A stretch of DNA of 64,000 nucleotides, taken from positions 2,155-66,154 of the forward strand of contig CAZJZY010000001.1 in assembly GCA_964550685.1 (NCBI GenBank). Direction: 5' to 3'. Shown piece by piece: positions 1 to 24,354 of the stretch. The position numbers were made by a program, and so were the translations under genes. Positions within the stretch are counted from its first letter, which is position 1, and every line of letters starts with the position of its first letter. Under the pieces are notes generated by a model. The model was not told where the DNA came from, ran no database searches, and was given only the letters and a program-made list of their open reading frames with translations. The DNA is from an uncultured Rickettsiales bacterium (GTDB lineage: Bacteria; Pseudomonadota; Alphaproteobacteria; Rickettsiales; CANDYO01).

Positions 1-840
1 AGTGAGATGGTGGGTGAGTTTCCTGAGCTGCAAGGGATTATGGGAAAATATTATGCTGAAAAGTCTGGAGAGACACCAGAAGTTTGCTTAGCTATCTCCG
101 AGCATTATCGTCCTTTTGAAGCTAACGATATAGGAGATATTTCTCTTTTAGGAGCTGTTGTTGCTATTGCTGATAAACTGGATAGTATTGTGGGGCTATG
201 GTTAGCTGGAGAAAAGCCTAGCAGTTCAAAAGATCCATTTGCTCTGCGCAGAGCCGCTTTAGGGATTATTAAATTAATTCGTTATCATAAAATAGATGTA
301 TCTTTGTCTGAGTTAATTTCTAAAGCAATTGAGTTATATAAAATAGAATCTGACAATCTTTTGTCAAAAGAGATACTCTCATTTTTTCATGATAGACTTA
401 AATATTATCTTAAAGCTGAAGATTTTCGTCATGATTTAATTATGGCTGCTTTAGGTGAGGAGAGCCATAATATCCACGAGGCATTAACAAAACTTGTTAA
501 GTTAAAGGAGTTCATGCTCAACCCTAAATCTCAAGAACTGGTATTTGCAATTAAACGGATATTAAATATAATATCTAGCGCTAAGCTAGATCTTAATTTG
601 GAAATAGAGGAAAAATTATTTACTGCTCCTGAAGTAAACTTATATCAAGAATTTAGGAAAATATCTGACGATATAAAAATTGAAAATTTAGCTTTATTGG
701 TTCCGGCTATTGATAAATTTTTTGAGGAAGTTTTGGTGAATGACCAGGATCTAAAATTAAAACAGAATAGATTAAATCTGCTAAATAATATTGCTCAATT
801 GAGTTATAAAATAGCTGATTTCAATAAAATAGATGGTTAG
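1..840 (+). CDS. glyS: glycine--tRNA ligase beta subunit, C-terminal part (5' end lies outside the window)
   Basis: Frame is open from nt 1. SEMVGEFPELQGIMGKYYA and DPFALRRAALGII motifs are typical of GlyS. Stop TAG at 838-840. Confidence 0.85.
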   Translation, partial: SEMVGEFPELQGIMGKYYAEKSGETPEVCLAISEHYRPFEANDIGDISLLGAVVAIADKLDSIVGLWLAGEKPSSSKDPFALRRAALGIIKLIRYHKIDVSLSELISKAIELYKIESDNLLSKEILSFFHDRLKYYLKAEDFRHDLIMAALGEESHNIHEALTKLVKLKEFMLNPKSQELVFAIKRILNIISSAKLDLNLEIEEKLFTAPEVNLYQEFRKISDDIKIENLALLVPAIDKFFEEVLVNDQDLKLKQNRLNLLNNIAQLSYKIADFNKIDG

Positions 841-844
841 TTTT

Positions 845-3493
845 ATGGAAAAATTAGTATATAAATTCGGAATGAAGGATAATGAAGGCAATAGCAAAAT
901 GAAAGATTTGCTTGGCGGCAAAGGTGATAATTTAGCTGAAATATGCAGCCTTGGCATTGCAGTTCCTCCAGGATTCACCATTACTACGGAGGTTTGTAAA
1001 ACTTATTACTCAGAAAATAAGAATCTTCCTAAAGATCTTGTATCTCAAGTGGGTATAGCTCTTAAAGAAATGGAACAATTTTTGGGCCGTCAATTTGGTA
1101 ATCCAAAAAATCCATTATTAGTGTCGGTGCGCTCTGGAGCAAAATTTTCTATGCCAGGAATGATGGATACTATTTTAAACCTAGGTCTTAATGATGAAAC
1201 AGTTATTGGTCTTGCTTCCATCAGTAACAATCCATGTTTTGCTTATGATAGCTATCGTCGTTTTATCCAAATGTATTCTAATGTGGTATTAAATTTGGAT
1301 CATTATCTATTTGAAGAAATTATTGAGTGGAAAAAGAGAGATCTTAAGATTGTAAATGATACAGATTTGTCAGCGAATAATCTGCAAGAAATTATTGCAC
1401 AATTTAAAGAGATAGTAAAATCTGAAACGGGGAATGAATTTCCCCAAGATCCTCAAGTACAGTTATGGTCAGCAATTAATGCTGTATTTGATTCTTGGAT
1501 GAGCAATCGCGCTATTACTTATCGTCGCTTAAATAACATTGACTCTAATTTAGGTACGGCTGTTAACATTCAAGCAATGGTATTTGGCAATACTGGTGAA
1601 CTTTCGGCAACCGGAGTGGTATTTACTCGTAATCCCACTAATGGCTCAAAGCAAATTTACGGTGAATATTTAATTAACGCACAAGGCGAAGATGTGGTTG
1701 CTGGAATTAGAACCCCTCAAAATGTTAGTATTTTAGGAAAAAATCAAACCGAATCAGATCTTCCTTCTATGGAAGAAACTATGCCCAAATTGTATCAAGA
1801 ATTATTGAGCACTTGCGCTGCATTAGAGCTGCATTATAAAGATATGCAAGATATTGAATTCACTATTGAAGAAGGTAAATTATGGATTCTGCAAACTAGA
1901 TCAGGTAAGCGCACAGCGAAGGCAGCTATGGTGATTGCGGTAGATTTAGTTAACGAAGGATTGATTGAAAGGGAAGAAGCTATTTCTAGAATTGATGTTA
2001 CTAGCATTGATAAATTGCTTCATCCTACTATAGATGAAAAAGAAAAATATACCGTAATAGCTAAAGGTTTGCCAGCTTCTCCAGGGGCCGCTATGGGAAG
2101 AGTGGTGTTTTCATCTGAGAAAGCAGAAAAAATGGCACTTCAGCATAAGGTGATTTTGGTCAGAATCGAAACCAGCCCTGAAGATATTCATGGTATGCAC
2201 GCTGCTGAGGGGATATTGACTAGCCGCGGGGGGATGACTTCTCACGCTGCAGTGGTAGCAAGGGGAATGGGCAAGCCTTGTGTTTGTGGCGCTAAGGATT
2301 TACACATAAATTATGAGAATAATAGTTTTACGGCTAATGGTATCACTATAAAAGAAGGTGATTATATCACTTTGAATGGTAGTGCTGGAGAAGTGATTAT
2401 TGGTGAAGTTGCCATGACCAAGCCTGAATTATTTCCTGAGTTTAGTCAAATTATCTCTTGGTCTAATCAAATACGCCGTTTAAAAATTCGCACTAATGCT
2501 GAGACCAAATTAGATAGCGAAGTGGCTAGAAATTTTGGCGCAGAAGGAATCGGCTTGTGTAGAACGGAACATATGTTTTTTGAGAGCGATCGTATTAATT
2601 CTATGCGTGAGATGATTTTGGCTAATAATCTTGAGCAGCGCCGCAAGGCTCTAGATAAATTATTGCCAATGCAGATCAAAGATTTTGTTGAAATTTTTAA
2701 TGTAATGCACGGTCTGCCAGTTACTGTTCGTTTACTCGATCCTCCTTTGCATGAATTCCTTCCGCATAACGAGCAAGACATGAATGAATTGGCAGATAGT
2801 ATGAATATTTCTCTTGAACAAGTGAAGAGCCGCTCAACTCAATTAAAAGAACATAATCCTATGTTGGGGCATCGTGGCTGTCGCTTAGGCATCACTTATC
2901 CTGAAATTTATGAAATGCAAGTTAGAGCAATTTTTGAAGCTATGGTTATTGCAGATAATGCTGTCGTTGAAATAATGATCCCATTAATCTTTGACGTTAA
3001 AGAATTTGACTTGATGAAAAAAATAGTTGATGATATAGCCCAAGAAATAGGATTGAAGAATAATTTAAAGCTGAAATATGAAGTTGGTACAATGATTGAA
3101 TTGCCGAGAGCGGCTTTAAAATCTGGCGAAATTGCTTCTTCAGCTGAGTTTTTTAGCTTTGGCACTAATGATTTAACTCAAACTGCTTTAGGTGTTTCGC
3201 GTGATGATGCGGCAATATTCTTAAATGAATACAGAGAAAAAGGCATTATAAAAACTGATCCATTTGCCTCAATTGATCAAGATGGTGTTGGTGAATTATT
3301 AAAAATCGCGATTGAACGCGGTAGAAAAACAAAGCCTAATTTAAAAATAGGCGTTTGCGGAGAGCATGGAGGAGACCCTGAGTCGATTCAGTTTTTCCAT
3401 AATATTGGATTGGACTACGTCTCCTGCTCTCCGTTCAGAGTGCCGGTGGCAATAATTGCGGCAGCAAAGGCTGGTATACGTGAAGTCATCTGA
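845..3493 (+). CDS. ppdK: pyruvate, phosphate dikinase
   Basis: About 880 aa. N-terminus VYKFG...LLGGKGDNLAEI, phosphohistidine swivel motif GGMTSHAAVVARGMGKPCV, and PEP-utiliser C-terminal FFSFGTNDLTQ. ATG at 845 fits the family N-terminus better than ATG at 833. Stop TGA at 3491-3493. Confidence 0.95.
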   Translation: MEKLVYKFGMKDNEGNSKMKDLLGGKGDNLAEICSLGIAVPPGFTITTEVCKTYYSENKNLPKDLVSQVGIALKEMEQFLGRQFGNPKNPLLVSVRSGAKFSMPGMMDTILNLGLNDETVIGLASISNNPCFAYDSYRRFIQMYSNVVLNLDHYLFEEIIEWKKRDLKIVNDTDLSANNLQEIIAQFKEIVKSETGNEFPQDPQVQLWSAINAVFDSWMSNRAITYRRLNNIDSNLGTAVNIQAMVFGNTGELSATGVVFTRNPTNGSKQIYGEYLINAQGEDVVAGIRTPQNVSILGKNQTESDLPSMEETMPKLYQELLSTCAALELHYKDMQDIEFTIEEGKLWILQTRSGKRTAKAAMVIAVDLVNEGLIEREEAISRIDVTSIDKLLHPTIDEKEKYTVIAKGLPASPGAAMGRVVFSSEKAEKMALQHKVILVRIETSPEDIHGMHAAEGILTSRGGMTSHAAVVARGMGKPCVCGAKDLHINYENNSFTANGITIKEGDYITLNGSAGEVIIGEVAMTKPELFPEFSQIISWSNQIRRLKIRTNAETKLDSEVARNFGAEGIGLCRTEHMFFESDRINSMREMILANNLEQRRKALDKLLPMQIKDFVEIFNVMHGLPVTVRLLDPPLHEFLPHNEQDMNELADSMNISLEQVKSRSTQLKEHNPMLGHRGCRLGITYPEIYEMQVRAIFEAMVIADNAVVEIMIPLIFDVKEFDLMKKIVDDIAQEIGLKNNLKLKYEVGTMIELPRAALKSGEIASSAEFFSFGTNDLTQTALGVSRDDAAIFLNEYREKGIIKTDPFASIDQDGVGELLKIAIERGRKTKPNLKIGVCGEHGGDPESIQFFHNIGLDYVSCSPFRVPVAIIAAAKAGIREVI

Positions 3494-4553
3494 GGGAAGG
3501 TACTTTTATAGAATAGACCATATTCGGGCTCTTGCCGCTTTTATGGTTTTTGTATGGCACTTTTTGCATTCCGCCAATGGTTATCCTATTAAATTTAATG
3601 ATACTCCATATATATTTCTGCTGTCAATATTTGATGAAGGACATACTGGGGTTGCTCTTTTTATGACTTTAAGTGGTTATTTGTTTGCAAAATTAATTGA
3701 CAACAGAAAAGTAAATTATTGGTTATTTATTTATAACCGAGTATTAAGGTTACTGCCTTTGCTTGCCTTGGTGACCTTGATTTTAGGGGTGCAGAATTTT
3801 ATTAATGGTTATGGCGCTTCAGATTATTTTTTATCTATTTTAACAGGTCTAGTTTTGCCAACTTTACCGAATGGAGGATGGTCTATAACTGTTGAATTTC
3901 ATTTTTATTTAATTCTGCCAATGATATTATACGCTGTTAGAAAAAATAAAAGTTATCTGATAGGCTTTCTAATCCTAATTTTAATTTTTAGACTAATTTT
4001 ATGGTATAAATTAGGAGAAATACAGAGTTTATCGTACTGGACTATTATTGGTAGAATTGATCAATTTATATTTGGTATATTAGCATTTCATTTAAGAAAC
4101 TATATCAAGAGGTGCCATTTTTTAGTTATCACTGTTTTTTTAGCCTTTTGTTTCTTGTATTACCAATTTGATATATTGGGCGGCTTTTATAATTATCCAT
4201 CTTATCCTTCTGTTAGTTCATTATGGATAATAATGCCAACTATTGAGGCTTTTACTTATGGGTTAGGTATTGCTTGGTATGTTGAGTCTTTTAGTAATTT
4301 TTCAAACAATAAATTTTCTATTTTTTTTGCAGAGCTTGGAAAGTACTCTTATTCTATATATTTATTGCATTTTTTTGTTGTGTTCAGAGAGGCTAGTTTT
4401 GTACATGAACATGTTATGAATATGTCCAATCTTTATATTGGAATTTTATGGGCAATGTTTTTTTATATCTTAATGTGGCCGATTGGTTATTTGAGTTTTA
4501 GATATATAGAAAGTCCTTTTCTAAAATATAGAAAAAAATATATTCTTATTTAA
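3456..4553 (+). CDS. acyltransferase family 3 integral membrane O-acyltransferase
   Basis: RIDHIRALAAFMVFVWHF N-terminal motif and many hydrophobic segments across 365 aa. The start is uncertain; an alternative GTG lies at 3480. The ORF overlaps the end of ppdK. Confidence 0.75.
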   Translation: MRQQRLVYVKSSEGRYFYRIDHIRALAAFMVFVWHFLHSANGYPIKFNDTPYIFLLSIFDEGHTGVALFMTLSGYLFAKLIDNRKVNYWLFIYNRVLRLLPLLALVTLILGVQNFINGYGASDYFLSILTGLVLPTLPNGGWSITVEFHFYLILPMILYAVRKNKSYLIGFLILILIFRLILWYKLGEIQSLSYWTIIGRIDQFIFGILAFHLRNYIKRCHFLVITVFLAFCFLYYQFDILGGFYNYPSYPSVSSLWIIMPTIEAFTYGLGIAWYVESFSNFSNNKFSIFFAELGKYSYSIYLLHFFVVFREASFVHEHVMNMSNLYIGILWAMFFYILMWPIGYLSFRYIESPFLKYRKKYILI

Positions 4554-4607
4554 TAATTGTTTTTTGGATCTAACTATGTTTATATATTTTTCTATTATTA
4601 ATAAAAG

Positions 4608-5672
4608 GTGTTAAGCGGTATGAGTAGTAATAAATTATTCAATTCTAGCTGGAAAAGCTGTTTTTATAGAGTTTCAGTTGTGTTCCTTATTCTTGCTTTA
4701 GGGGTGTTGACTTACGTCATATCAAAAAAGAGCAAAAATGTTATAAATGAACTTAAGCTTGATAGGGGCGCCTCTATTCAGGAGATAAAAGAATATATTA
4801 AGATGGAGAGCGAGTTTATTGTAAAAAATATAAAAAAAAATATTCCTTGTGAGTTCTTTAGTGAAGCAGTAGGAGTTTGTAATGCCGAATGCACGTTAAC
4901 ATCTTATGAGACTATTTTAGCTCAGAGTTTCTTTGATATGGTATCTCCTAGTATGAAAGTTTTAGAGATCGGTCCTTATGTTAACCCTAGCTTGAAGGGA
5001 GCTAATGTTAAATATTTTGATATTTTAAGCGCTGAAGATATAAAAAGCCAAATACTTAATGAAAAAAATGAGGCTCTTAAGAATGGCGTTAGTAAGGACG
5101 CTGATTTATCAAAGGTGCCCAATATAGATTATGTCCATCCAAATGGAGATCTTAGAATAATAAAAGAAAAATTTGATGTAGCTTTTTCTAGTCACAATAT
5201 AGAGCATCAAATAGACCTTGTTGCTCACTTAAATCAAGTGGCAGAATTGCTAAATTCAGGAGGAAAATTTTATCTTGTTATTCCCGATAAGAGGTATTGT
5301 TTTGATCATTTTATACCAGAGTCACCTCTTTCTGATATTATAGGTAGTTATTATAGCGCTATAAAATTGCATCAGCTTGACACTATATTGGCTATGAGCT
5401 GCGAAACCACACATAATAATCCTAAGCTTCATTGGCAAGGTGAGCACGGACAAGTAAAAGGGCGCAATAGTTCTTGCTATGTTGATTCTATAAAAGATTT
5501 TAAAAATAATAGTGGGTATATTAACGCTCATCGTTGGAGGTTTACACCGCAGAGTTTTGAGTTCATAATTAATCAGCTTAATGAGATGGGATTAACAACT
5601 TTAAAAGTAGAAAAAGTTTATATGACTCAAGAGAATACGGCTGATTTCAAGGTTATTCTATATAAACCTTAA
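4608..5672 (+). CDS. membrane-anchored class I SAM-dependent methyltransferase-like protein (paralogue 1)
   Basis: N-terminal hydrophobic segment FYRVSVVFLILALGVLTYVI. Motif I-like VLEIGPYVNPSL, acidic post-I KYFDIL, and FSSHNIEHQIDLVAHLNQVAELLNSGGKFYLVIPD resembling Methyltransf_11/23. The likely real start is ATG at 4620. Confidence 0.5.
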   Translation: MLSGMSSNKLFNSSWKSCFYRVSVVFLILALGVLTYVISKKSKNVINELKLDRGASIQEIKEYIKMESEFIVKNIKKNIPCEFFSEAVGVCNAECTLTSYETILAQSFFDMVSPSMKVLEIGPYVNPSLKGANVKYFDILSAEDIKSQILNEKNEALKNGVSKDADLSKVPNIDYVHPNGDLRIIKEKFDVAFSSHNIEHQIDLVAHLNQVAELLNSGGKFYLVIPDKRYCFDHFIPESPLSDIIGSYYSAIKLHQLDTILAMSCETTHNNPKLHWQGEHGQVKGRNSSCYVDSIKDFKNNSGYINAHRWRFTPQSFEFIINQLNEMGLTTLKVEKVYMTQENTADFKVILYKP

Positions 5673-5751
5673 ATTAAGCAATAATTTTAGTTATTGATTT
5701 ATCTAGATAATTATATAAACTGTGGTTTTTTAGCTTCTATTGGACAATATT

Positions 5752-6741
5752 ATGCTTCGTAAGATCTTTTGTTTTTTTTTAATTGCCTCATTGCTTGTTA
5801 ATGCTGGATTGATTTTGCGTATGCAAAGTCATGATCGGGATTTGGATGCTTGTAATCTAGTGAATACTGAGTTAGAAAAGTCTCTAAATATATCTAGATC
5901 ACTTGAGGATTCTAAGAGTGGGCAACAAAAAATCCACTATTTCCAAAAGTCTTTTGGAGATAATGGAGCTTTTGGAGATTCTATAAAATCTTGTGAGTTT
6001 ATGTCTCGTTCTGATTTTCTTGGAGCGATAGGTGAAGATTTAAAAGTTCTTGAGATTGGGCCATACTACTCACCTTCTCTGAAGGGCGCTAACGTAAAAT
6101 ATTTTGATGTGTTAGATAAGGGGGGGCTAGAAAAAAAAGCAGCTATTGATAATCTATCAATTGAAAATATTCCTAATATAGATTATATCCATTCTGGCGG
6201 CGACATGGGGATTATTAAAGAAAAATTTGATGTGGTATTTTCTAGTCATAATATTGAACATCAAGTGGATTTAGTAAGGCACCTTAATCAAGTTTCTGAT
6301 GTATTAAAAGAAGGTGGTAAGCTTTATCTTATTGTACCTGATAAGCGTTATTGTTTTGATCGCTTTATTCCTGAAACCTTACTTTCTGAGGTCCTCGCAA
6401 ATCATGAAGAAGGAAGATATAGGCATTCATTAAGTACTATTCTAGAAGCTTGTGAAAGCACTTCTAATGATCCTATTGGACATTGGGAAGGCCGGGCTTC
6501 GCCTTTGTTATCTGGATTGGGCTGCTATAACACCCGTATTAAGGCTTTTGAAGATGCAAAAGGTGGCTATATTGATGCGCATAAATGGCGGTTTACGCCC
6601 CAAAGCTTTAGTTATATTATTAATAGTTTAAATGAATTAGGGCTGGTAGATTTGAGAATAGAAAAAATCTTTTGCACTCAGCCTAATTCAATAGAATTTT
6701 CTGCCATTTTGGTTAAATATAAGGATAATAAAAATGATTAA
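5752..6741 (+). CDS. membrane-anchored class I SAM-dependent methyltransferase-like protein (paralogue 2)
   Basis: Colinear with 4608-5672: VLEIGPYYSPSLKGANVKYFDVL, FSSHNIEHQVDLVRHLNQVSDVLKEGGKLYLIVPDKRYCFD and AHKWRFTPQSF. N-terminal anchor IFCFFLIASLLVNAGLIL. ATG at 5752. Confidence 0.5.
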   Translation: MLRKIFCFFLIASLLVNAGLILRMQSHDRDLDACNLVNTELEKSLNISRSLEDSKSGQQKIHYFQKSFGDNGAFGDSIKSCEFMSRSDFLGAIGEDLKVLEIGPYYSPSLKGANVKYFDVLDKGGLEKKAAIDNLSIENIPNIDYIHSGGDMGIIKEKFDVVFSSHNIEHQVDLVRHLNQVSDVLKEGGKLYLIVPDKRYCFDRFIPETLLSEVLANHEEGRYRHSLSTILEACESTSNDPIGHWEGRASPLLSGLGCYNTRIKAFEDAKGGYIDAHKWRFTPQSFSYIINSLNELGLVDLRIEKIFCTQPNSIEFSAILVKYKDNKND

Positions 6742-8092
6742 TTTTATAAACAAAAACAAGAAGTTCTTCGTAATATGGGGGCTTTTAATAACGGCAGTAC
6801 TTTTTATTTCTTGGGAATGCATTGTAATCTATAAGAATAGCAATAAGCAGGCTTTAATCAGCGATGTTGAAAGTTATGATAGATTCTTTTGGAATGAATA
6901 TTATTCAAAGAACACCATTAAGCAGTCTTATAAAATTATAATTATAGGTCCTGAGCCTACTCCTAATGGTCGGGTGGTTTCAGATGAGACTTTGATTTTA
7001 AGGATAGTTAGGGCTGCCTTAAATCTGAACTGGGAAATTAAATTTTATGATACTTTGATGGGAAAAGAAGATGAAGTTATAGATTTTAATCCGGATTTTA
7101 TCATTTCTACTATTCCAAAGTGGAATATGTCTTCGTATATTCCCTTGCCTTATAAAATATATTCTTTTATTCCTCTTCAGTATTCCACTTTTTTCTCAGT
7201 AAGGGTAAAAGAGCCTTCTATAAACTATAGCTCTTTAAAATATATATATAATGGTTTTATGCCTCAAATATTTACTGTTTCAGATGGTCTTATACTAACA
7301 GATAAAAAGTTCTTGTTATTTAAAGAATTATTTGAAGCGAAATCAAAAAATAAATTCCATGGTATAGTTGGTTATCCTGGAGTAGATTATTTTGATTATG
7401 ATGACTCTGTTGAGGCTAATAAAATAATTTATTATGGTATAAATTGGGATTCACTTAGAAGTAGCAAGACATATTTGGATTTATACGATAACCTAGCAGA
7501 GAGAGGTATAGTTGACTATTATGGGCCATTCATTGGATGGATAAATAACTATAGAAATGGTTGGAAGGGTTTTTTAACTTTACGTAATAAAATAGATGAT
7601 AAAGGCCAGCCGATAGTTGCGAAGGATGATATTGTGTTGGAAACAATAAAGCAGCATGGTATTGTTTTAATATTGCATTCTGATGTTCACTTTGATGGGG
7701 ATATTCCTAGTTTAAGAGAGTTTGAGGCTGCAGCTGCTTCGTCTTTAATTATTAGCGATGAGTTGCCTTTTGTGCGTGAAACTTTTGGAGATAGTGTACT
7801 ATACATAGAGGTAAAAAACAGAACGACAAAAGAGATAGAGGATCAAATAGTTAAGCATTATGAATGGATTAAAGAAAATCCAGATAAAGTTAAAGAGATG
7901 ACAAAGAAAGCTCATAGCATATATAAGGAGAAATTTACTTTAGAGAAGTTGCTTGTAGATATAGCTCATATGCATGAGTCAGTATTAAGAGATCAGTCAG
8001 TCAATGATATTCATTTACAAAAGAATCTTAAGCTTGAGACCCACCTTAAGGTTACTGATACTGTAATTCCAGCTGGTCGTGCCTCATATTGA
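6734..8092 (+). CDS. anchored CgeB-like glycosyltransferase (Glyco_trans_1_2-type C-terminal domain), paralogue 1
   Basis: N-terminal anchor FFVIWGLLITAVLFISW. C-terminal LREFEAAAASSLIISDELPFVRETFGDSVLYIE followed by a helical tail, as in CgeB-family GT-B domains. The start overlaps the previous stop (ATGATTAA). Confidence 0.55.
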   Translation: MINFINKNKKFFVIWGLLITAVLFISWECIVIYKNSNKQALISDVESYDRFFWNEYYSKNTIKQSYKIIIIGPEPTPNGRVVSDETLILRIVRAALNLNWEIKFYDTLMGKEDEVIDFNPDFIISTIPKWNMSSYIPLPYKIYSFIPLQYSTFFSVRVKEPSINYSSLKYIYNGFMPQIFTVSDGLILTDKKFLLFKELFEAKSKNKFHGIVGYPGVDYFDYDDSVEANKIIYYGINWDSLRSSKTYLDLYDNLAERGIVDYYGPFIGWINNYRNGWKGFLTLRNKIDDKGQPIVAKDDIVLETIKQHGIVLILHSDVHFDGDIPSLREFEAAAASSLIISDELPFVRETFGDSVLYIEVKNRTTKEIEDQIVKHYEWIKENPDKVKEMTKKAHSIYKEKFTLEKLLVDIAHMHESVLRDQSVNDIHLQKNLKLETHLKVTDTVIPAGRASY

Positions 8093-8115
8093 TATGTTAA
8101 GGATGTAAGAACCCA

Positions 8116-9336
8116 ATGGTTATAATAAAAAAAATAAAAGTGATTATAACCATATGTTTGATAGTCATTGCAGTTTTTTTTGCTCTATATTTTTTTAAAA
8201 AAACTATTCTTCCTAACTACAAATTCGATCAAGCCATAAAAGAGGCTGCAAAAATTCCAGACACCCACTGGGATGAAAAATATCAGGATATGAAAATCAA
8301 TGATAAATATAAAGTTGTTTTAATATCAGCTGATGGTGGTGAATATAGCTATGTAGAGAATTTTAAATATGCTGCTGAAAAAATGGGGTGGGAAGTTCAA
8401 ATATATTATAATCAAATTTTAGGACATGAAAAAGAGATCTTAGATTTTGATCCAGATTTTATTTTACTCACTCCCTATGCTGCTCCTATCATGGATATGA
8501 AAATAACCGCTGATAGATCTAAAAAATATCTTTTAAGCTTTATATCTTTTCAAGGCTTAAGAGATGAACGAAAATGGCTCTCAAAGAAAGACATTTACCA
8601 AATTATTGATAATGGATTTAAGCTTTTTGTTTCTAGATCACATGCTATATTAACAGCAGCTCACGAAGTGGATATTTATCGAGAAATCTTTGAAAAAATG
8701 GGCAAGCCATTTAACGGTTTAAGGCTTTTGCCACTAACTCCTAAGTTTGTAAATGAGCCTGCAGAACCTAAAAACCTTATGTGGGTGGGTATGGGATGGG
8801 ATAATTTTCGTTCTTCTGAAAATTATACAAATTTCATTAGATCGCTCAGTCAAAATATTTCTATGAAAATTTATGGCTCGGCTGCAACTCTTTCAAGCTT
8901 TATAGATAGTTATGGAGGCTACATTCCTCCTGGTATAGAAAATATCAATGCCATAAGAAAAAATGGTATTTATCTGCTAACACATAGTGATTGGCACTTT
9001 AAGGGTGGAGAGCCAAGCATGAGAATATTTGAGGCTGCTGCCGCAAATGTTGTAATCATTTCAGATAAACATCCATTCGTTGTTAAGCATTTTGGTGATA
9101 GCTTACTTTATTTTGATAATGATGTTGCTAGTGAAGTTATGTACAACCAAGTTAAAGCCCATATTGATTGGATTAAATCTAACCCAGAAGAAGCCAAACT
9201 TAAAGCGGCACGTGCTCATCAAATTTTTCTAGAGAACTTTACTTTGGAAAAAGATTTGGTTAGACTTGCTAAGATGCATGAATATATCTTGCTGCAAGAG
9301 AAAAAAATGAATTTAGACTATAAGCTAGCTTATTAG
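8116..9336 (+). CDS. anchored CgeB-like glycosyltransferase, paralogue 2
   Basis: Colinear with 6734-8092: MRIFEAAAANVVIISDKHPFVVKHFGDSLLYFD and FTLEKDLVRLAKMHE. N-terminal anchor VIITICLIVIAVFFALYFF. Confidence 0.55.
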   Translation: MVIIKKIKVIITICLIVIAVFFALYFFKKTILPNYKFDQAIKEAAKIPDTHWDEKYQDMKINDKYKVVLISADGGEYSYVENFKYAAEKMGWEVQIYYNQILGHEKEILDFDPDFILLTPYAAPIMDMKITADRSKKYLLSFISFQGLRDERKWLSKKDIYQIIDNGFKLFVSRSHAILTAAHEVDIYREIFEKMGKPFNGLRLLPLTPKFVNEPAEPKNLMWVGMGWDNFRSSENYTNFIRSLSQNISMKIYGSAATLSSFIDSYGGYIPPGIENINAIRKNGIYLLTHSDWHFKGGEPSMRIFEAAAANVVIISDKHPFVVKHFGDSLLYFDNDVASEVMYNQVKAHIDWIKSNPEEAKLKAARAHQIFLENFTLEKDLVRLAKMHEYILLQEKKMNLDYKLAY

Positions 9337-9359
9337 CTTAATTTAAGAGCTTTAGTAAT

Positions 9360-10676
9360 ATGAAGAAATTTCTAAAAAAAATAGCCCTTCTAAGTGTTGT
9401 TATTATAATAATTATAGCTTGTATTTCCTTCTATAAAATCTGTTATAAAAACTATTATCTTACCGTCACTGGCATAGTAGAATATGCCGATGGTATTGGC
9501 AGACAAATAATTGACCTAGAAGATCTTATTGGCGATGAAGTGGAGATGAATACTACTGCTATAGTAAATACTAAGCAGTATTTGCCTGAAAGATTTAAAG
9601 AAATTATAAAGATAAAAAATAAAAAACCTGGTTATGTTGTTTTAAATGAATATTCTCTTTCTTTTGGGTTCCAAGAAGATAAGAGAATGCAACAAATTCT
9701 ATTTGATGCAGACAAAAATAGATTAAGAAAGTCATTTAATAGGATTCCAAGAGAAGAGCAAATTTTTATTAGCTACTCAATGTTTGAGTCAGATAGAATC
9801 CCGCAGCATTGGGTATATAGAATAAATAGTGAATGGGATATGGTAGTTGTACCAGATCAAAGTTTAGTAGATGTTTATATAAATTCTGGAGTGAAAAAGC
9901 CAATTTTTGTTGTCCCATTAGGAACAAATCTAGAAACGCACTTGAATGCTCCATTAAAAAAAGAAGCTGGCAAAATATTCACCTTTGCTAATTTTTCAGC
10001 TATCGAAGAAAGAAAAAATTTAATGAAATTATTAGAGGCATATCATAAAACTTTTAATGGCAATGATAAAGTGAGATTGTTGCTTTCTTCAAGACGGGAT
10101 GGTGGTAGCTACAAAGAATTAAAAGAATATATTCTAAAAAATAACGTTCAAGGTGTGGAAATTGATATTGGCACTAAGGACAGTAGGTTTTATAATTTTG
10201 CATTTGAAAATATAGATTGTTATGTTAGCCCTTCTAAAGGAGAAGGGTTTTCGGTTATTCCAAGAGAGGCTATGGCCAGAGGTATTCCAACAATTGTTAG
10301 CGATGCTCTAGCTCAAAAAACTATTGCTAACACAGGCTTAGTTAAAGTGGTTCCTGCTAATAAACTAGTTCCTGGTTATTATTCTCATGCCGATAAATTT
10401 ATTGGCAATTACTATGACATAGAAGTGAATGATTTAGCTGAAGCAATGCTTGAGGTTTATAAAAATTATCAAAAATTTTTAGATAATGCACCGGCGGCAA
10501 GATCTTGGGCAGAGAAAGGGCAATATAAATATTTAAAAGAAGAATATATCAATATGGTCAAGCCAAAGAAAATAATTCTTGGAGATAAGAATGAAATTAC
10601 AAAAGATTATTTAATGACCAACTCAAAAGAGCTGTATAATAAATGGAAACATTTAAAGGATAAAGGATTATTATGA
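9360..10676 (+). CDS. anchored glycosyltransferase family 4 (GT-B, Glycos_transf_1 domain), paralogue 1
   Basis: EX7E-type motif SPSKGEGFSVIPREAMARGIPTIVSD. N-terminal anchor IALLSVVIIIIIACISF. Confidence 0.75.
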   Translation: MKKFLKKIALLSVVIIIIIACISFYKICYKNYYLTVTGIVEYADGIGRQIIDLEDLIGDEVEMNTTAIVNTKQYLPERFKEIIKIKNKKPGYVVLNEYSLSFGFQEDKRMQQILFDADKNRLRKSFNRIPREEQIFISYSMFESDRIPQHWVYRINSEWDMVVVPDQSLVDVYINSGVKKPIFVVPLGTNLETHLNAPLKKEAGKIFTFANFSAIEERKNLMKLLEAYHKTFNGNDKVRLLLSSRRDGGSYKELKEYILKNNVQGVEIDIGTKDSRFYNFAFENIDCYVSPSKGEGFSVIPREAMARGIPTIVSDALAQKTIANTGLVKVVPANKLVPGYYSHADKFIGNYYDIEVNDLAEAMLEVYKNYQKFLDNAPAARSWAEKGQYKYLKEEYINMVKPKKIILGDKNEITKDYLMTNSKELYNKWKHLKDKGLL

Positions 10677-11395
10677 AAAGAATTATTGTTATATTATTGC
10701 TATTATTTAGCTTGCATGCTCAAGCATTATCAGTGACCTACGCAGTTACTGTTAGTACAGAAGCTGAAGAATTGAGAAGGCTTCTAAAGCAATTATCTAA
10801 GAATTTAGATGATGAAGACAGAATTTTAATCCAAGTTGATCAAGATAATCATTCTGAAGAAGTGATACAAGTCATTAATAAATTTGGTAGTAGCATTCCA
10901 GCCAATCAATATAAAGTTATCTATTACCCTTTAAATAAAAATTTTGCTGCTTTTAAGAATAATCTTCTAAAAAATGCTGGAAATAATGGTTTTATGTTTC
11001 AGCTTGATGCGGATGAGATTCTAAGCTTTTCACTGATGCAAAATTTGAAATATTATTTAGCCCAAAATCAGGATGTAGATTTGATAATGTTGCCAAGAGC
11101 TAATTATTATATCAATATGGAAGAAGATCAAGATTTTCAAGAAATGGACAAAACTCACTCAGATGAATTAGGAAGATTCAGATATCCTGATTTGCAAGGT
11201 AGAATTATTAAATTAGGTAATAAAAAACTAAGATATAATGGCGAATTACATGAAGGTATTCTAGGAGCCAAAAAAATAGTTACTATGCCACATACTGGCA
11301 AAAACCAAAGTTGGGATCTTATTCATATAAAAACTATGAAAAAACAAAAAATATCAGATAAGCTATACAAAGAAATAGAAAAGATTGTTAAATGA
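10673..11395 (+). CDS. glycosyltransferase family 2-like protein with signal-peptide-like N-terminus
   Basis: GT-A start SVTYAVTVSTEAEELRRLLKQL and DxD-type QLDADE. N-terminus MKRIIVILLLLFSLHAQA. ATGA overlap with the upstream gene. Confidence 0.6.
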   Translation: MKRIIVILLLLFSLHAQALSVTYAVTVSTEAEELRRLLKQLSKNLDDEDRILIQVDQDNHSEEVIQVINKFGSSIPANQYKVIYYPLNKNFAAFKNNLLKNAGNNGFMFQLDADEILSFSLMQNLKYYLAQNQDVDLIMLPRANYYINMEEDQDFQEMDKTHSDELGRFRYPDLQGRIIKLGNKKLRYNGELHEGILGAKKIVTMPHTGKNQSWDLIHIKTMKKQKISDKLYKEIEKIVK

Positions 11396-11396
11396 A

Positions 11397-12710
11397 ATGA
11401 TATTTCTTTTTAGATTATTTATATTAATATTTAGCGTTGTTGGTCAGGCGCAAGAACTAGAAGAAATCTCAGCTGAGGATTTCCTTACTAAAAATCCTTC
11501 TCCAGAACGAAAAGCAATCGTAAATTTTATAGTTCATCAATTTGATAGCAAGAGAGATGTAGCTATTACTCAGACCCAATTAGATGATGTGTGGTCTAAT
11601 GTGGCAGCTAGAAATAAACTTTTTATGATTAGATTCCAAATAGTAAATCAGAAATTATATGCTGATAGTTGTTATTTAGAGCATGATCATTTTATAATGT
11701 TGCTCAGATATCTTAATAATCTTGTAAGTAAGTATAAGATTAATGATTTAGATTTTATAGTGTATTCTGGTGATGATACTAATGGAAAAGATTTACTTAG
11801 TGATATACAACAAAAATTACCAACTTTTCTTCATTCTAAAGATTATAATGATCCATTTGAAAAAGATAGATTTTTATTTCCAGATTCATACCTAATCACT
11901 CCTCATTGGAATAATTTAATTACTAGGATAGAAAATGCAAATAATCTTTATTTATGGAGCAATAAAATTGAAAAAATATTCTGGATAGGTAAAACTACAG
12001 GTAATGGAGATATGAAATATAATATGGATAATTTTGCTAAGCTGCCACGTTTGAATTTAGTAATTCTATCAAAGCTTTATCCAGACTTAATTAATGCTAG
12101 ATTTAATTCATATTATAATTTCTCTGATAATAAGAGTGGCACTGATTTAAAATTAACACTAGATCTTTTATTTGGCGGAATTTCACCAAGTGTTTCTGAA
12201 GAAAATCATTTAAAATATAAATACCTAATTTCTATTGATGGGAACACTTGTGCTTGGATGAGAGTGCCTTGGATTATGCTTTCAAATTCAGTTCTAGTTA
12301 AGCAAGAGACTTCAAAAATGGAATGGTTTTATCCTGCGATGAAACCTTATATACATTATATTCCAGTGGATGAAAGTTTAACCAACATCTTTCAAAAATT
12401 TGAATGGATGAAAGATCATGATAATGAACTAAAGGAAATATCAAATAATGCCCAGAGTTTTATTAAGAATAATTTAATGCCAGAACATATTGATGCTCAC
12501 TCTGTTATTATTTTAAATGAATATCATAACTTACATAAAGATACTAAAATAATCGCCACTCTAACTTCAGCTGATGAGTTGCTAATGAAAATAAATGCTT
12601 GGGAAGAATCCGAAGCTGAAAAGAGAATGGGGATCAGAAAATCATTAAAAATAAAGTTTAAAAAAATCTTTAAGAATATTGTTGATAAAGTGAGATCTTT
12701 ATGTTCTTAA
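11397..12710 (+). CDS. GT90 / CAP10-domain (POGLUT-like) glycosyltransferase, paralogue 1
   Basis: KYKYLISIDGNTCAWMRVPWIMLSNSVLVKQETSKMEWFYPAMKPYIHYIPV...WMKDHDNELKEISNNAQSFIKNNL matches the GT90 core remembered from eukaryotic protein O-glucosyltransferases. Signal-like N-terminus MIFLFRLFILIFSVVGQA. Confidence 0.75.
   Translation: MIFLFRLFILIFSVVGQAQELEEISAEDFLTKNPSPERKAIVNFIVHQFDSKRDVAITQTQLDDVWSNVAARNKLFMIRFQIVNQKLYADSCYLEHDHFIMLLRYLNNLVSKYKINDLDFIVYSGDDTNGKDLLSDIQQKLPTFLHSKDYNDPFEKDRFLFPDSYLITPHWNNLITRIENANNLYLWSNKIEKIFWIGKTTGNGDMKYNMDNFAKLPRLNLVILSKLYPDLINARFNSYYNFSDNKSGTDLKLTLDLLFGGISPSVSEENHLKYKYLISIDGNTCAWMRVPWIMLSNSVLVKQETSKMEWFYPAMKPYIHYIPVDESLTNIFQKFEWMKDHDNELKEISNNAQSFIKNNLMPEHIDAHSVIILNEYHNLHKDTKIIATLTSADELLMKINAWEESEAEKRMGIRKSLKIKFKKIFKNIVDKVRSLCS
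11451..11510 (+). repeat. 60-bp near-identical segment shared with 12773-12832 (N-terminal regions of GT90 paralogues 1 and 2)
   Basis: Hand alignment gives 58 of 60 positions identical (caagaactagaagaaatctcagctgagga...tccttctccagaacga), while the flanking codons are much more diverged. Confidence 0.85.
12207..12337 (+). repeat. 131-bp highly similar segment shared with 13547-13677 (catalytic cores of GT90 paralogues 1 and 2)
   Basis: Hand alignment gives about 120 of 131 positions identical, including a 38-bp perfect run (acttgtgcttggatgagagtgccttggattatgctttc). Confidence 0.8.
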
Positions 12711-14038
12711 GTAGTTTTAAATTTTATAGAACTATATTGATTCTTCTTTTGTGCTTTAATAAATTATATGCACAAGAACTAGAAGAAATCTCAGCTGAGG
12801 AATTCCTTGCTAAAAATCCTTCTCCAGAACGAGAGGAGATCATAAATTTTATAGTCCATCAATTTGATAATAAGCTGGAATCTGGCGTAACTCAAGAGCA
12901 GCTAGATAGTTTGTGGAATAATAACGAAGCTAGGCAAGAGTTTTTTATTTCTAGATTCCAAATAGTTGATAATAAGCTTTATGCCGATAGCGTTGATCTA
13001 AATTTTCCTTTTTATATAGAGTTTTTAAACTATCTACAAAAACTTTTGTACAGCTATAAAATACCAGATGTAGACTTTATTTTTCATATGAAAGATGGGA
13101 TTTTTGCTAACCAAAGTTTAAGAGAAAAATTTCTTAATATTCCGTCATTTTTAATGTCAAAAGATCTAAAAGCATTTTATGAAAATGATAGGCTATTATT
13201 ACCTGACTTATTTATGATGGGCAGTAATTGGTATGAGCTTAAAACAAGAATAGAAACTTCTAATAATATCTACCCTTGGAGTGATAAAATAAATCAAATA
13301 TTCTGGCGAGGATTTACCACTGGCAATGGAGAGATGGAATATAGCATAGATAATTTTGATAAATTTCCTCGTTTAACGTTAGTCATGTTATCCAAACTTT
13401 ACCCTGATTTAATTGATGCAAAGTTTAATAGATTTAGTTTTGATAAAAATAAAAGCGGCGAAGATTTAAGATTAGTATTAAATATTTTGTCTAATGGTGT
13501 TCCTGAGTCAGAAATTGAAAAAACACAAACAATTCCTGAAGAAGATCATTTAAAATATAAATATCTGATTTCTATTGATGGCAATACTTGTGCTTGGATG
13601 AGAGTGCCTTGGATTATGCTTTCTAATTCAGTTCTGGTTAAACAAGAAACGTCTAAGATGGAATGGTTTTATCCTGCAATAAAGCCATATGTACATTATG
13701 TCCCCGTCAATGAAAGATTAACTGACTTATTATCTCAAATTCAATGGATGAAAACTCACGATCTAGAATTAGAAAAAATATCAGCTAATGCACAAAATTT
13801 TGTTAAGAATAACTTGATGCCAGAACACATTGATGCATATAGTGTAATTATTTTGAATGAATATCATAAATTGCACAAGGGATCTAAGCTTATTCCAACC
13901 CTTCCTCCAGCAGAAGAAAGCTTCATAAAGTTAGAGGCTTTAAAAAAAAATAAATCTGAAAATAGTATGAGCATAGGGAAGAAAATTAAAAGATTTTTTA
14001 GAAAGATAAAACAAAGGTTTGAAAAATTATGCATATAA
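12701..14038 (+). CDS. GT90 / CAP10-domain glycosyltransferase, paralogue 2
   Basis: Same core as paralogue 1, with a near-identical DNA stretch. Signal-like N-terminus ending LYA/QE. Its start overlaps the upstream stop. Confidence 0.75.
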   Translation: MFLSSFKFYRTILILLLCFNKLYAQELEEISAEEFLAKNPSPEREEIINFIVHQFDNKLESGVTQEQLDSLWNNNEARQEFFISRFQIVDNKLYADSVDLNFPFYIEFLNYLQKLLYSYKIPDVDFIFHMKDGIFANQSLREKFLNIPSFLMSKDLKAFYENDRLLLPDLFMMGSNWYELKTRIETSNNIYPWSDKINQIFWRGFTTGNGEMEYSIDNFDKFPRLTLVMLSKLYPDLIDAKFNRFSFDKNKSGEDLRLVLNILSNGVPESEIEKTQTIPEEDHLKYKYLISIDGNTCAWMRVPWIMLSNSVLVKQETSKMEWFYPAIKPYVHYVPVNERLTDLLSQIQWMKTHDLELEKISANAQNFVKNNLMPEHIDAYSVIILNEYHKLHKGSKLIPTLPPAEESFIKLEALKKNKSENSMSIGKKIKRFFRKIKQRFEKLCI

Positions 14039-15303
14039 GAAAACTATTATTGTTTATATTTTTTATTCTTTGCAGTTTTGATGTATATGCATTAAAAGAT
14101 ATTTCTCCTGAGAATTTTATTGCAGAAAATTCATCATCTGAACGTAAAAATATTGTAGACTTTATTGTGCATCAATTTGATAACAAACTTGAAGATGGAG
14201 TTACTCAAGCTCAATTAGATAACATTTGGAATGACCTAAATTTAAGAAAAAATCATTCCATGGTTAGATTTCAAGTTGTTAATCAAAAGCTTTACGCTGA
14301 CACTTTTGATTTATACAATGATTGTTATGTTTATTATATTCAGAAGCTTGTTAATAAATATAAAATTAGGGATATAGATTTTATAATTTATGAAAGAGAT
14401 GGGATTAATTCAGATAAAGTACTTGGTATCCCAGCTTTTATGCCTGCTAAAAATTTAGATTCCATTCATGAAAAAGAGATATTATTATTTCCTGATCCAT
14501 ATATGGTTGTAGATTATTGGCAAAAACTGATTGAGAGAATAGAAGAAGCTAATACTAAATATCCTTGGAATAAAAAGATAAATAAATTATTTTTCAGAGG
14601 GTTTTTAACAGGAGGAAGCGATGATATAGACTCTCCCAATGTTTCACCTCGTTTAACATTATCTATATTATCAAAATTATACCCAGATTTAATTGATTCT
14701 AAGTTAACAGGTTTTCATAGGATAGTAGAATATAGTAATAATAAACATTCTATTGCGGATTTTTTGTTTGGACCAGGAACTCCGATAAACGAGCAAGAAG
14801 GCACTCTCTATAAAGCTAATCATGTAACAGAAGAAGATCATTTAAAATATAAATATATCATGTCAATTGATGGTAATACAGCCGCTTGGAGGAGAGTTCC
14901 GTGGATTATGCTTTCTAATTCAGTTTTAGTAAAACAAGAGTCTAATAAAATTCAGTGGTTCTATTCGGCCATGAAGCCATATGTTCATTATGTTCCAGTT
15001 AATGAAAGGATAACTGATATATTTTTACAGCTTGAATGGATGAAATCTCATGATGCAAAATTACAGCAAATTTCACAGAATGCTCAAAATTTTGTAAAGA
15101 ATAATTTAATGCCAGAGCATGTTGATGCCCATAGCGTTATTATTTTAAACGAATATCATAAATTACATAAAGGTGCAGAGATTATTCCTACTCTTCCGCC
15201 AGTAGAAGAGACTATAGCAAAGATTGAGGTTCTAAAGCCTAAGATGGGCAGAAAGAAGCGACTTAAAAAATTCTTTAATGATCTAAAAGATGAATTCTTA
15301 TGA
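14029..15303 (+). CDS. GT90 / CAP10-domain glycosyltransferase, paralogue 3
   Basis: KYKYIMSIDGNTAAWRRVPWIMLSNSVLVKQESNKIQWFYSAMKPYVHYVPV. Signal-like N-terminus ending VYA/LK. It overlaps both neighbouring genes. Confidence 0.75.
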   Translation: MHIRKLLLFIFFILCSFDVYALKDISPENFIAENSSSERKNIVDFIVHQFDNKLEDGVTQAQLDNIWNDLNLRKNHSMVRFQVVNQKLYADTFDLYNDCYVYYIQKLVNKYKIRDIDFIIYERDGINSDKVLGIPAFMPAKNLDSIHEKEILLFPDPYMVVDYWQKLIERIEEANTKYPWNKKINKLFFRGFLTGGSDDIDSPNVSPRLTLSILSKLYPDLIDSKLTGFHRIVEYSNNKHSIADFLFGPGTPINEQEGTLYKANHVTEEDHLKYKYIMSIDGNTAAWRRVPWIMLSNSVLVKQESNKIQWFYSAMKPYVHYVPVNERITDIFLQLEWMKSHDAKLQQISQNAQNFVKNNLMPEHVDAHSVIILNEYHKLHKGAEIIPTLPPVEETIAKIEVLKPKMGRKKRLKKFFNDLKDEFL

Positions 15304-16571
15304 AAAAGACCTTATTACTAATCTGCTCAATTATAGTTCTATTTTTTTTCTACAGAACCTTCATAAAGAATAACGATGTAACCATCTATGGAGTTATAAA
15401 CCAGGCGGACAGCATCGGTAGGCAGCCGCTTGATTTGATCAATATGCTTGATGGTGAAGTGGGTATGAACTTCATGGGCAAGGTGATTTCTACAAATGAA
15501 TTGAACTCCAAAGCTAAATCAGTGTTACAGAATTTTAACTTCAAAGTCGGTCATATATTTTTCTATGAATATGTATTTAATGTATGGGGTAATGAGGATT
15601 ATAAATTCAACCGCACAAAATATAAATTATTATCTAAAATAAATGGCTTAAAAAGATCTGAGCAAATCTGGATTGCATATTCAATGTTTGAGTCAGATAA
15701 AATTAGTCCTTTTTGGGTGGAAGAACTAAACAAAAATTATGACCTAGTGGTTTTACCTGATCCAAATTTAGTTTCTATTTATCAAATCTCAGGAGTCAAA
15801 ATTCCAATATTTGTAGTGCCATTATCTGTTAATTATGGCAAATCAATGATGTATCCTCTAAAAAGTGAAGCTCACCCCGTTTTTACCTTTGCTGATTTTG
15901 GCGCAATGATCGATCGTAAAAACACATTAAAACTTCTGCAAGCCTTTAAGGCTGCCTTCGGTAACAGAAAAGATGTGCGCTTATTGTTGAGTGCGCGTAT
16001 GAGTGAGGATTTACATAGACAAAAAATTATTGATTATATTGTTGATAACCAAATGGATAATGTTGATTATAATATTTCAGTTAAAGATAGTGAAACTTAT
16101 AATAAATTCTTTGATCAGGTTGATTGTTATATATCTTTATCTAAAGGGGAGGGGTTTGCTGTGCAACCACGCGAAGCAATGGCTAGGGGAATTCCTGTGA
16201 TTGTAAGTGATGCAATAGCTCAGAAAACTATTGCTGCTTCTGGATTAGTTAAGGTAGTAAATGCTAATGTTGCAAGACCAGCTTTTTACTATGACGGAAA
16301 AGCGATGATAGGTCATAATTTTGATGTAGAGATTGTAGATGCCGCAAATGCGATGCTTGAGGTATACAATAATTATCAGAAATATTTAGGTAATGCAGTA
16401 AAATCTAGAGAATGGGCAAGTCAATATACTTACGAAAATATTAAGCCATTATATGTTAGTTTAGTTAAGCCTAAAAAAGTTATTTTAGGTAAGGAAAATA
16501 AGGTAACTAAGGATTACTTGGAAACCACTTCAAAAGAATTATACAATAAATATATTATAAATAATAAATAG
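15300..16571 (+). CDS. anchored glycosyltransferase family 4, paralogue 2
   Basis: Colinear with 9360-10676: SLSKGEGFAVQPREAMARGIPVIVSDAIAQKTIA, and the same C-terminal tail VKPKKVILGKENKVTKDYLETTSKELYNK. ATGA overlap with the upstream gene. Confidence 0.75.
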   Translation: MKKTLLLICSIIVLFFFYRTFIKNNDVTIYGVINQADSIGRQPLDLINMLDGEVGMNFMGKVISTNELNSKAKSVLQNFNFKVGHIFFYEYVFNVWGNEDYKFNRTKYKLLSKINGLKRSEQIWIAYSMFESDKISPFWVEELNKNYDLVVLPDPNLVSIYQISGVKIPIFVVPLSVNYGKSMMYPLKSEAHPVFTFADFGAMIDRKNTLKLLQAFKAAFGNRKDVRLLLSARMSEDLHRQKIIDYIVDNQMDNVDYNISVKDSETYNKFFDQVDCYISLSKGEGFAVQPREAMARGIPVIVSDAIAQKTIAASGLVKVVNANVARPAFYYDGKAMIGHNFDVEIVDAANAMLEVYNNYQKYLGNAVKSREWASQYTYENIKPLYVSLVKPKKVILGKENKVTKDYLETTSKELYNKYIINNK

Positions 16572-17206: not shown

Positions 17207-17227
17207 TCTAATATATTATACTAATAT

Positions 17228-17265: not shown

Positions 17266-17274
17266 AAGAATGTT

Positions 17275-24301: not shown

Positions 24302-24354
24302 TAGATTTACCTCCCTTGTTGAGTTAAAATTTGATCCAAAAGAGGCTTAAGTTA

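Follow-up and report, generated by a model that had tools for sequence, protein, structure and literature searches.

Eleven open reading frames (ORFs) in the genome of an uncultured Rickettsiales bacterium form a glycan-modification block from which several nucleotide-sugar-dependent enzymes appear to be exported. The block lies at 3456-16571 on the + strand of the 64,000-nucleotide stretch analysed here (contig CAZJZY010000001.1 of assembly GCA_964550685.1, positions 2,155 to 66,154; hereafter the window); its ORFs are co-directional and tightly packed between ppdK and pal, and the lineage is one of uncultured, probably host-associated Rickettsiales. It encodes eight nucleotide-sugar-type (Leloir-type) glycosyltransferases, two S-adenosylmethionine (SAM) methyltransferases and one AT3 acyltransferase. 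Judged by the -3/-1 rule, ORF7-10, a GT2 and three GT90 enzymes, carry real, conserved and cleavage-competent signal peptides, which argues strongly for the export of these four proteins, and the six remaining soluble-type enzymes (ORF2-6 and ORF11) begin with conserved hydrophobic segments predicted to be uncleaved anchors. What would be new is a locus for the decoration of lipopolysaccharide (LPS) or lipooligosaccharide (LOS) whose Leloir enzymes are apparently exported. We favour, with the case about evenly balanced, a reading in which an envelope glycan, probably the LPS core, would be decorated in the periplasm with host-derived donors. The ORFs of the block are the following.

ORF1, 3456..4553, +: polytopic AT3 (OafA/Oac-type) acyltransferase with several hydrophobic segments; PF01757 over residues 18-340 (88.8 bits, E = 4.5e-25)
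ORF2, 4608..5672, +: class I SAM methyltransferase-like protein, N-terminal anchor at about residues 22-40; weak Methyltransf_23/11 matches below the Pfam cut-offs; 50% identity to ORF3
ORF3, 5740..6741, +: methyltransferase paralogue of ORF2, anchor at about residues 8-26; Methyltransf_11, 26.2 bits (cut-off 21.2)
ORF4, 6734..8092, +: CgeB-like GT-B protein, anchor at residues 14-32; PF13524, 26.7 bits (cut-off 25); 32% identity to ORF5
ORF5, 8116..9336, +: CgeB-like GT-B protein, N-terminal anchor; PF13524, 37.5 bits (cut-off 25); AlphaFold model with a predicted local distance difference test score (pLDDT) of 95
ORF6, 9360..10676, +: GT4, anchor at residues 4-22; PF00534, 40 bits, E = 3.8e-10; EX7E at residue 295
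ORF7, 10673..11395, +: small GT2 (GT-A), cleavable-type signal peptide MKRIIVILLLLFSLHAQA/LS; family PF00535; AlphaFold model
ORF8, 11385..12710, +: GT90 (POGLUT/KDELC-like), signal peptide …SVVGQA/QE; PF05686, E = 4.2e-30; likely start ATG 11397
ORF9, 12701..14038, +: GT90, signal peptide …NKLYA/QE; PF05686, E = 2.9e-34; basic amphipathic C-terminal tail
ORF10, 14029..15303, +: GT90, signal peptide …FDVYA/LK; PF05686, E = 9.4e-34; 49-53% identity to ORF8 and ORF9
ORF11, 15300..16571, +: GT4, N-terminal anchor, conserved last gene of the slot; PF13692 and PF00534, 29.9-34.3 bits; EX7E at residue 284

Enzyme families and catalytic motifs

Profile searches support the families that an earlier note on this DNA had assigned by motif (AT3, two methyltransferases, two CgeB-like proteins, two GT4, one GT2 and three GT90), with ORF2 placed through its identity to ORF3 and ORF7 through its family and a structural model. 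For GT90, ORF8-10 match PF05686 with 105-119 bits against a curated cut-off of 24. The family profile also matches the structures of POGLUT2, POGLUT1 and Rumi (E = 2.5e-39 to 1.7e-19, with POGLUT2, 9w47, at 2.5e-39), and the motif IDGN..R..W/Y..L..S in the UDP (uridine diphosphate)-binding region is common to this family and POGLUT2. Both ORF6 and ORF11 lie above the Pfam cut-off for GT4 and contain EX7E motifs, EGFSVIPRE and EGFAVQPRE. ORF3 exceeds the Methyltransf_11 cut-off, and ORF2, which falls under every cut-off, takes its class from its identity to ORF3.

ORF7 itself has no Pfam match. An exhaustive search recovered 727 relatives, however, and 48 of the 50 members sampled for Pfam match PF00535 (Glycos_transf_2). 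The AlphaFold model built from the relatives' alignment (pLDDT 93.5) has a predicted GT-A fold, for which Foldseek returned ThuS, SunS, SpsA and TarP at E = 1e-9 to 1e-6, the first three being the closest; the DxD-type residues D112, D114 and E115 are invariant in the family. The ORF5 model consists of a predicted helix at residues 2-45 followed by a GT-B fold, with SenB, BshA and PimA as the best Foldseek matches. Sequence searches of the PDB with ORF7, ORF5 and ORF3 returned no informative match.

Across hundreds of homologues the catalytic and nucleotide-binding motifs do not vary, and the catalytic machinery thus appears to be retained in the GT2, GT4 and GT90 enzymes. This bears on the idea that the exported proteins are no longer nucleotide-sugar transferases and have become glycan-binding proteins, transglycosylases or users of lipid-linked donors. 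Such a change would remove the problem of donor supply, and the activity of the family members is so far predicted from sequence, but the invariant motifs argue against it, polyprenyl-phosphate sugars are not known as donors of any GT-B or GT-A enzyme, and no GtrA/GtrB-type genes lie nearby. We regard a loss of Leloir chemistry as highly improbable.

Signal peptides and membrane anchors

All ten non-polytopic enzymes of the block begin with a hydrophobic segment, as do 17 of the 39 other genes of the window (p = 2.5e-4 for the block in a naive binomial test). Those of the 17 to which a function can be assigned belong to the envelope, as membrane proteins or in the periplasm (Pal, BamA, Skp, a BepA-like M48 protein, LspA, LptF/G, cytochrome bd and others), and no clearly cytoplasmic enzyme of the window has such an N-terminus. 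The earlier view that every enzyme of the block is anchored therefore holds for these ten, whereas the AT3 protein is simply a polytopic membrane protein. Since the segments are kept in homologues (107 of 120 for GT90, 84 of 97 for the CgeB-like proteins and 96 of 117 for GT4), they are not artefacts of start-codon choice.

The GT90 N-termini read as the classical pattern of signal peptidase I (SPase I). When 107 homologues are aligned at the conserved N-terminus of the mature protein, 86% have A, G or S at position -1 and 91% have A, S, V, T, L, I or G at position -3, with a bulky residue at -2; the signal peptides are about 19 residues long, of which about 14 form an uncharged h-region. We took a basic n-region, an h-region of 7-15 residues and small residues at -3 and -1 as the mark of a Sec (SPase I) signal peptide, and ORF7-10 are all predicted to bear it. 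Their signal peptides are indistinguishable from those of two periplasmic proteins of the window, PBP4 (…PFLSQA/DD) and a BepA-like protease (…SNFAFA/DN). The conserved -3/-1 site and this match to periplasmic proteins speak for the four Sec-like signal peptides that had been proposed.

The same data bear on a membrane-tethered cytoplasmic assembly line, in which all the N-terminal segments would be mere inner-membrane anchors, lipid A-core or an undecaprenyl-linked O-polysaccharide would be extended inside the cell, and MsbA or a Wzm/Wzt pair encoded elsewhere would export the product. In its favour, the donors on which Leloir enzymes depend are cytoplasmic. On the other hand, the GT90 and GT2 h-regions, with their roughly 14 uncharged residues, are too short for a bilayer and are followed by the conserved -3/-1 site; the signals cannot be told from those of known periplasmic proteins; and no mechanism is known by which a protein with a classical Sec signal peptide would stay in the cytoplasm. 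We consider this alternative unlikely, and return below to further points on its side.

The C-terminal tails of the GT90 enzymes are basic and amphipathic, with a net charge of +3.3 and a hydrophobic moment of 0.56 (-0.1 and 0.41 for internal segments), and this suggests that they attach the cleaved enzymes peripherally to a membrane; possibly they are membrane-binding helices taking the place of the KDEL-type end of the eukaryotic enzymes. The tails of ORF8-10, encoded at 12600-12710, 13930-14038 and 15230-15303, are Lys/Arg-rich or Trp-rich, and are kept family-wide.

Relatives and the ppdK-pal slot

Homologues of the block proteins come almost all from uncultured Rickettsiales metagenome-assembled genomes (MAGs), and comparison with them indicates that the signals of the GT2 and the methyltransferases have been added to families that otherwise lack one. 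The broad ORF7 family, of about 210 amino acids (aa), aligns from ORF7 residue 20 and starts straight at the first β-strand, a signal peptide being confined to about seven nearest homologues. Among the methyltransferases, the nearest relatives (in loci L021 and L022) have a hydrophobic N-terminus and the more distant ones (L024 and L025, on GC-richer contigs) have none. The anchored methyltransferases also have Cys at two aligned columns and in the stem, where soluble homologues have A, V or R, a weak hint that disulfides may form. With signals that are both conserved and added to signal-less families, the export of Leloir-type enzymes would be a genuine lineage-wide feature.

Signals or anchors recur in further families. 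A 530-aa GT11 protein (fucosyltransferase family) of a relative (L018:8162-9754, -) has an anchor directly before the GNQ motif; to our knowledge, GT11 enzymes of other bacteria have no N-terminal anchor. Candidatus Phycorickettsia trachydisci encodes two GT32/TcdA-TcdB-like proteins of 580-594 aa with signal peptides (L020:11327-14862), adjoining two CgeB-like genes near glyQS. A GT90 of a Chlamydiae MAG is apparently signal-bearing, and the GT4 subfamily with anchors has members from Chlamydiota. One contig labelled as a Janthinobacterium lividum MAG (L016, JBPBQH010000206.1; GC 0.378) also carries a signal-bearing GT90 of the same family, and is probably a misbinned symbiont contig.

A comparison of synteny in relatives, which the earlier note had proposed, recovered the ppdK-…-pal slot in the 1.55-Mb complete MAG OZ245841.1 and in GCA_025210695.1, where it holds GT4-methyltransferase-GT90-GT4 (L002 and L008). 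The methyltransferase in this slot of the complete genome has a signal peptide, and ORF11 is 80% identical to the GT4 that precedes pal in both loci. The window block is therefore an expanded version of a strain-variable island in a conserved slot. GT90 genes also form tandem arrays outside it, six in a row in a Rickettsiales MAG (L013:3431-11215) and three beside clpB/hemB in OZ245841.1 (L001:8661-12616), and each copy in these arrays has its own signal peptide. Genes for ankyrin and LepB_N proteins often lie near these loci.

These observations raise the question of whether the signal-peptide enzymes, and perhaps others, are secreted effectors that leave the cell after Sec export through TolC-type, vesicle or unknown routes and glycosylate host proteins or glycans in a cytosol rich in nucleotide sugars. 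In favour of this, the nearest matches of the GT90 enzymes are eukaryotic protein O-glucosyltransferases (POGLUT2, E = 2.5e-39), and the GT2 model comes nearest in structure to two peptide S-glycosyltransferases, ThuS and SunS; GT11 and TcdA/TcdB-like GT32 proteins occur in relatives, arrays of up to six GT90 paralogues suggest diversification, and ankyrin effectors are common nearby. No outer-membrane secretion system adjoins any of these loci, however, and the amphipathic C-terminal tails and uncleaved anchors favour retention on bacterial membranes; the apparent co-transcription with the AT3 gene and the proximity to pal, lpxK and lpxL are more in keeping with a target in the envelope. A role as secreted effectors is thus rather improbable in our view.

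Missing pathway genes, donors and acceptor

In the 64-kb window, where five ORFs match no family, Pfam searches found no Wzx/Wzy, Wzm/Wzt, WaaL, initiating transferase or nucleoside diphosphate-sugar genes. None of the features of a classical O-antigen or capsule locus (initiating transferase, flippase or ABC transporter, polymerase or chain terminator, ligase) was detected there, nor were the GtrA, GtrB and GT-C families of Gtr-type glucosylation. For the five unmatched ORFs the exclusion of glycan functions rests solely on this lack of a match. The window does contain lpxK, lpxL, lptF/G, bamA and skp. From lpxK, lpxL, lptF/G and a sulfatase-family gene it follows that the organism produces, modifies and exports LPS, LPS being the likely acceptor. 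The features concerned are the following.

38457-40361 (-), 24331-26117 (+) and 53531-54628 (+): sulfatase-family (EptA/LtaS-like) membrane protein, lpxK, lpxL and lptF/G
20766-21827 (-), 26207-27355 (+), 32041-33792 (-), 45866-46504 (-) and 62105-62596 (-): five sizeable ORFs without a Pfam family, one of 583 aa

LOS-type core extension needs no flippase, polymerase, ligase or initiating transferase, and the gene make-up of the block fits such a core-extension (waa/lgt-type) locus, although the predicted signal peptides of four enzymes contradict a cytoplasmic site. The absence of sugar-activation genes is expected in Rickettsiales because host metabolites are imported, as shown for UDP-glucose and SAM in Rickettsia (PMC5615194); Phycorickettsia lies free in the host cytoplasm (PMC6092422). 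The earlier note was thus right that export, ligase and activation genes are missing from the window, but overstated how odd this is, given LOS core extension and import from the host. Its statement that this is not a textbook glycan locus goes too far, as a locus of transferases and modifiers only is textbook for LOS/core extension. What survives of its interpretation, which offered unusual tethered or exported enzymes, is the probable export of Leloir-type enzymes.

Comparison with known systems

Loci for LOS/LPS core extension (waa, lgt or lsg type) resemble the block in being operons of GT4, GT2 and other transferases with modifiers only, in lacking a flippase, polymerase and initiating transferase, in varying between strains and in lying near lipid A genes. 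They differ in that known core transferases are cytoplasmic peripheral membrane proteins, whereas the block has three GT90 enzymes and a GT2 with cleavable-type signals, and in that GT90 is not a usual core family.

Among solved structures the best sequence matches of the block GT90 enzymes are the eukaryotic POGLUT1/Rumi and POGLUT2/KDELC1, which likewise carry a signal peptide and work in a compartment other than the cytosol, on folded or exported acceptors. The endoplasmic reticulum, however, imports UDP-sugars by dedicated transporters, and the block enzymes have the basic amphipathic tail instead of a KDEL-type end and lack the conserved disulfide cysteines. The sole characterised bacterial GT90 that we found, the apiosyltransferase XpApiT of Xanthomonas pisi, resembles the block in gene arrangement, as its GT90 gene stands beside that of a small GT2 in one operon and is thought to modify an extracellular glycan (PMC6193724). 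XpApiT differs in being co-encoded with its own UDP-apiose synthase, and the paper that describes it, whose text contains none of the terms 'transmembrane', 'signal peptide' and 'periplasm', reports no export signal (PMC6193724).

Periplasmic modification of O-antigen, by Gtr glucosylation or AT3 O-acetylation, provides a parallel for decorating an LPS glycan after export at the periplasmic face, and ORF1 belongs to the same AT3 family. Gtr systems, however, use undecaprenyl-phosphate glucose and a GT-C enzyme, whereas the block has Leloir folds and the window no GtrA, GtrB or GT-C. Loci for ABC-dependent O-polysaccharides with terminal methyltransferases (WbdD-type logic) are a further comparison, as homologues of ORF2 and ORF3 have among their neighbours rml genes, Wzm and Wzt, the last with a Wzt_C domain. 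The window differs in having no Wzm/Wzt or rml genes, and its methyltransferases are anchored, with Cys that soluble homologues lack. An AT-rich (GC 0.30) metagenome contig illustrates the arrangement (L022:4641-11002), with rmlA-rmlC-wzm-wzt followed by a signal-peptide-like methyltransferase, RgpF and an anchored ORF2/3 homologue. Although the locus is of the classical ABC-dependent rhamnan type, its methyltransferases look exported or anchored. Standard O-antigen loci, in which the earlier note had thought that relatives might carry such genes, were found for the methyltransferase family only (L022 and L024).

A proposed periplasmic decoration pathway and the case against it

In the favoured reading, decoration of an envelope glycan in the periplasm, the three GT90 enzymes and the GT2 would be translocated and act at the periplasmic face, with the GT90 enzymes probably held on the membrane by their basic amphipathic C-terminal tails and the AT3 protein delivering acyl groups across it. 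The acceptor would be a glycoconjugate already in the periplasm, most likely the LPS core, and with an acceptor already at that face a flippase, polymerase, ligase and initiating transferase would be unneeded. Donors would be UDP-sugars and SAM from the host cytosol; since Rickettsiales import both, their route must lead through the periplasm. The six anchored enzymes could also be periplasmic, or they could lengthen the core on the cytoplasmic side, ahead of its flipping by MsbA. What we infer here are the acceptor, the source of the donors and the topology of the anchors.

The anchors themselves lean slightly towards a periplasm-facing (N-in/C-out, type II) orientation. In the GT4 and CgeB-like families the N-tail of 7-9 residues has 2.6-3.0 K/R and almost no D/E, and the 15 residues past the segment have 2.5-2.8 K/R and 1.2-1.4 D/E. 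We rejected the positive-inside charge test as a means of deciding the side, as its result for LpxK and LpxL is either the same or ambiguous, the proteome being Lys-rich; because their N-termini are so similar, sequence does not decide the orientation.

Several points weigh against periplasmic decoration. The charge rule does not discriminate in a Lys-rich proteome, and LpxK and LpxL of the window, which face the cytoplasm, likewise begin with K/R-rich, anchored N-termini comparable to those of the block, which also counts in favour of the cytoplasmic assembly line. So do the methyltransferase relatives embedded in rml-wzm-wzt-rgpF loci, where assembly is cytoplasmic (anchored in L022; soluble in L024, beside a Wzt with Wzt_C). 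We know of no robust precedent for a Leloir glycosyltransferase working in the bacterial periplasm. Lst of Neisseria gonorrhoeae, a Leloir transferase that decorates LOS with host CMP-Neu5Ac (cytidine monophosphate-N-acetylneuraminic acid), is the classic claim of such an enzyme at the surface, and differs from the block in being a single enzyme of another family. Its outer-membrane location is disputed, however, a more recent report placing it in the cytoplasm (PMC8092323), and we dropped it as support. This re-localisation speaks for the cytoplasmic assembly line, as does the fact that LOS transferases are cytoplasmic and membrane-associated. Literature searches for exported Leloir transferases, a periplasmic bacterial GT90 and signal-peptide glycosyltransferases of Rickettsiales returned no relevant published account, and the Phycorickettsia paper does not mention these genes (PMC6092422).

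A broader proposal, which we put forward tentatively and hold to be doubtful, is that a protist-associated Rickettsiales clade, possibly with some Chlamydiota, moved GT2, GT4, GT11, GT32, GT90, CgeB-like GT-B enzymes and SAM methyltransferases into the periplasm by means of signals and anchors. This would create a Golgi-like compartment for post-export glycosylation, workable only because the cell is bathed in host cytosol, from which UDP-sugars and SAM would diffuse through the outer membrane.

Locus layout and other features of the window

The layout of the block agrees with the earlier description of eleven + strand ORFs at 3456-16571, with five overlaps and the first ORF starting inside ppdK. 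The start/stop overlaps are 6734/6741, 10673/10676, 12701/12710, 14029/14038 and 15300/15303; 11385/11395 would be a sixth if ORF8 starts at TTG, and the ATG at 11397 is the likely start, as a homologue (P0003) begins MIFLF. The start of ORF1 must be TTG 3456 or GTG 3480, both within the 3' end of ppdK (which ends at 3493), since the AT3 profile is matched from residue 18 onwards. Upstream of the block lie glyS and ppdK, and downstream a Pal-like OmpA lipoprotein, a GyrI-like protein, tRNA-Met, comEC and folB. The two borders of the slot are as follows.

833..3493, +: ppdK, conserved upstream border, 886 aa; 82% identity to ppdK of L001, L002 and L008 (PPDK domains are listed for the relatives)
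16757..17206, +: pal-like OmpA-family lipoprotein, conserved downstream border; PF00691; lipobox LAAC; same position in L002 and L008

A hairpin resembling an intrinsic terminator at 17228-17256, just 3' of pal (13 bp, of which 7 GC, with a T-run), is the sole strong one in 3000-17500, and so ppdK, the glycan block and pal may be co-transcribed. Promoter-like sites are not enriched over shuffled sequence (93 versus 78 ± 8), and we therefore make no statement on internal promoters. Base composition gives no hint of recent foreign origin, with a GC content of 0.29-0.33 in the block and 0.31-0.37 in the flanks. An Rfam scan of the window found three tRNAs and no rRNA. We rejected an anti-phage defence reading, as PADLOC matches only a generic methyltransferase model, with ORF3, and Pfam hits of the GT4-conflict type lie below cut-off.

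Elsewhere in the window, 22166-22858 (-) encodes a 230-aa membrane-anchored retropepsin-like aspartyl protease (gag-asp_proteas, 1.7e-22), which we take to resemble rickettsial APRc, and 60541-61932 (-) encodes a 463-aa protein with an N-terminal DnaJ domain fused to multiple ankyrin repeats, a candidate host-directed effector.

Significance

In bacteria, Leloir transferases are as a rule cytoplasmic, and extracytoplasmic steps use lipid-linked donors and GT-C enzymes. If the favoured reading is true, Rickettsiales proteins numbering in the hundreds, drawn from at least five Leloir families and bearing conserved Sec signals, would be the first systematic exception to this rule. Synthesis of the envelope glycan would then draw directly on the metabolites of the host. 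This would be metabolic parasitism of a new kind, and possibly one reason why such bacteria resist axenic growth. The mature GT90 and GT2 enzymes are small proteins that model with high confidence, and could be used to probe the symbiont surface and a possible mimicry of host glycans.

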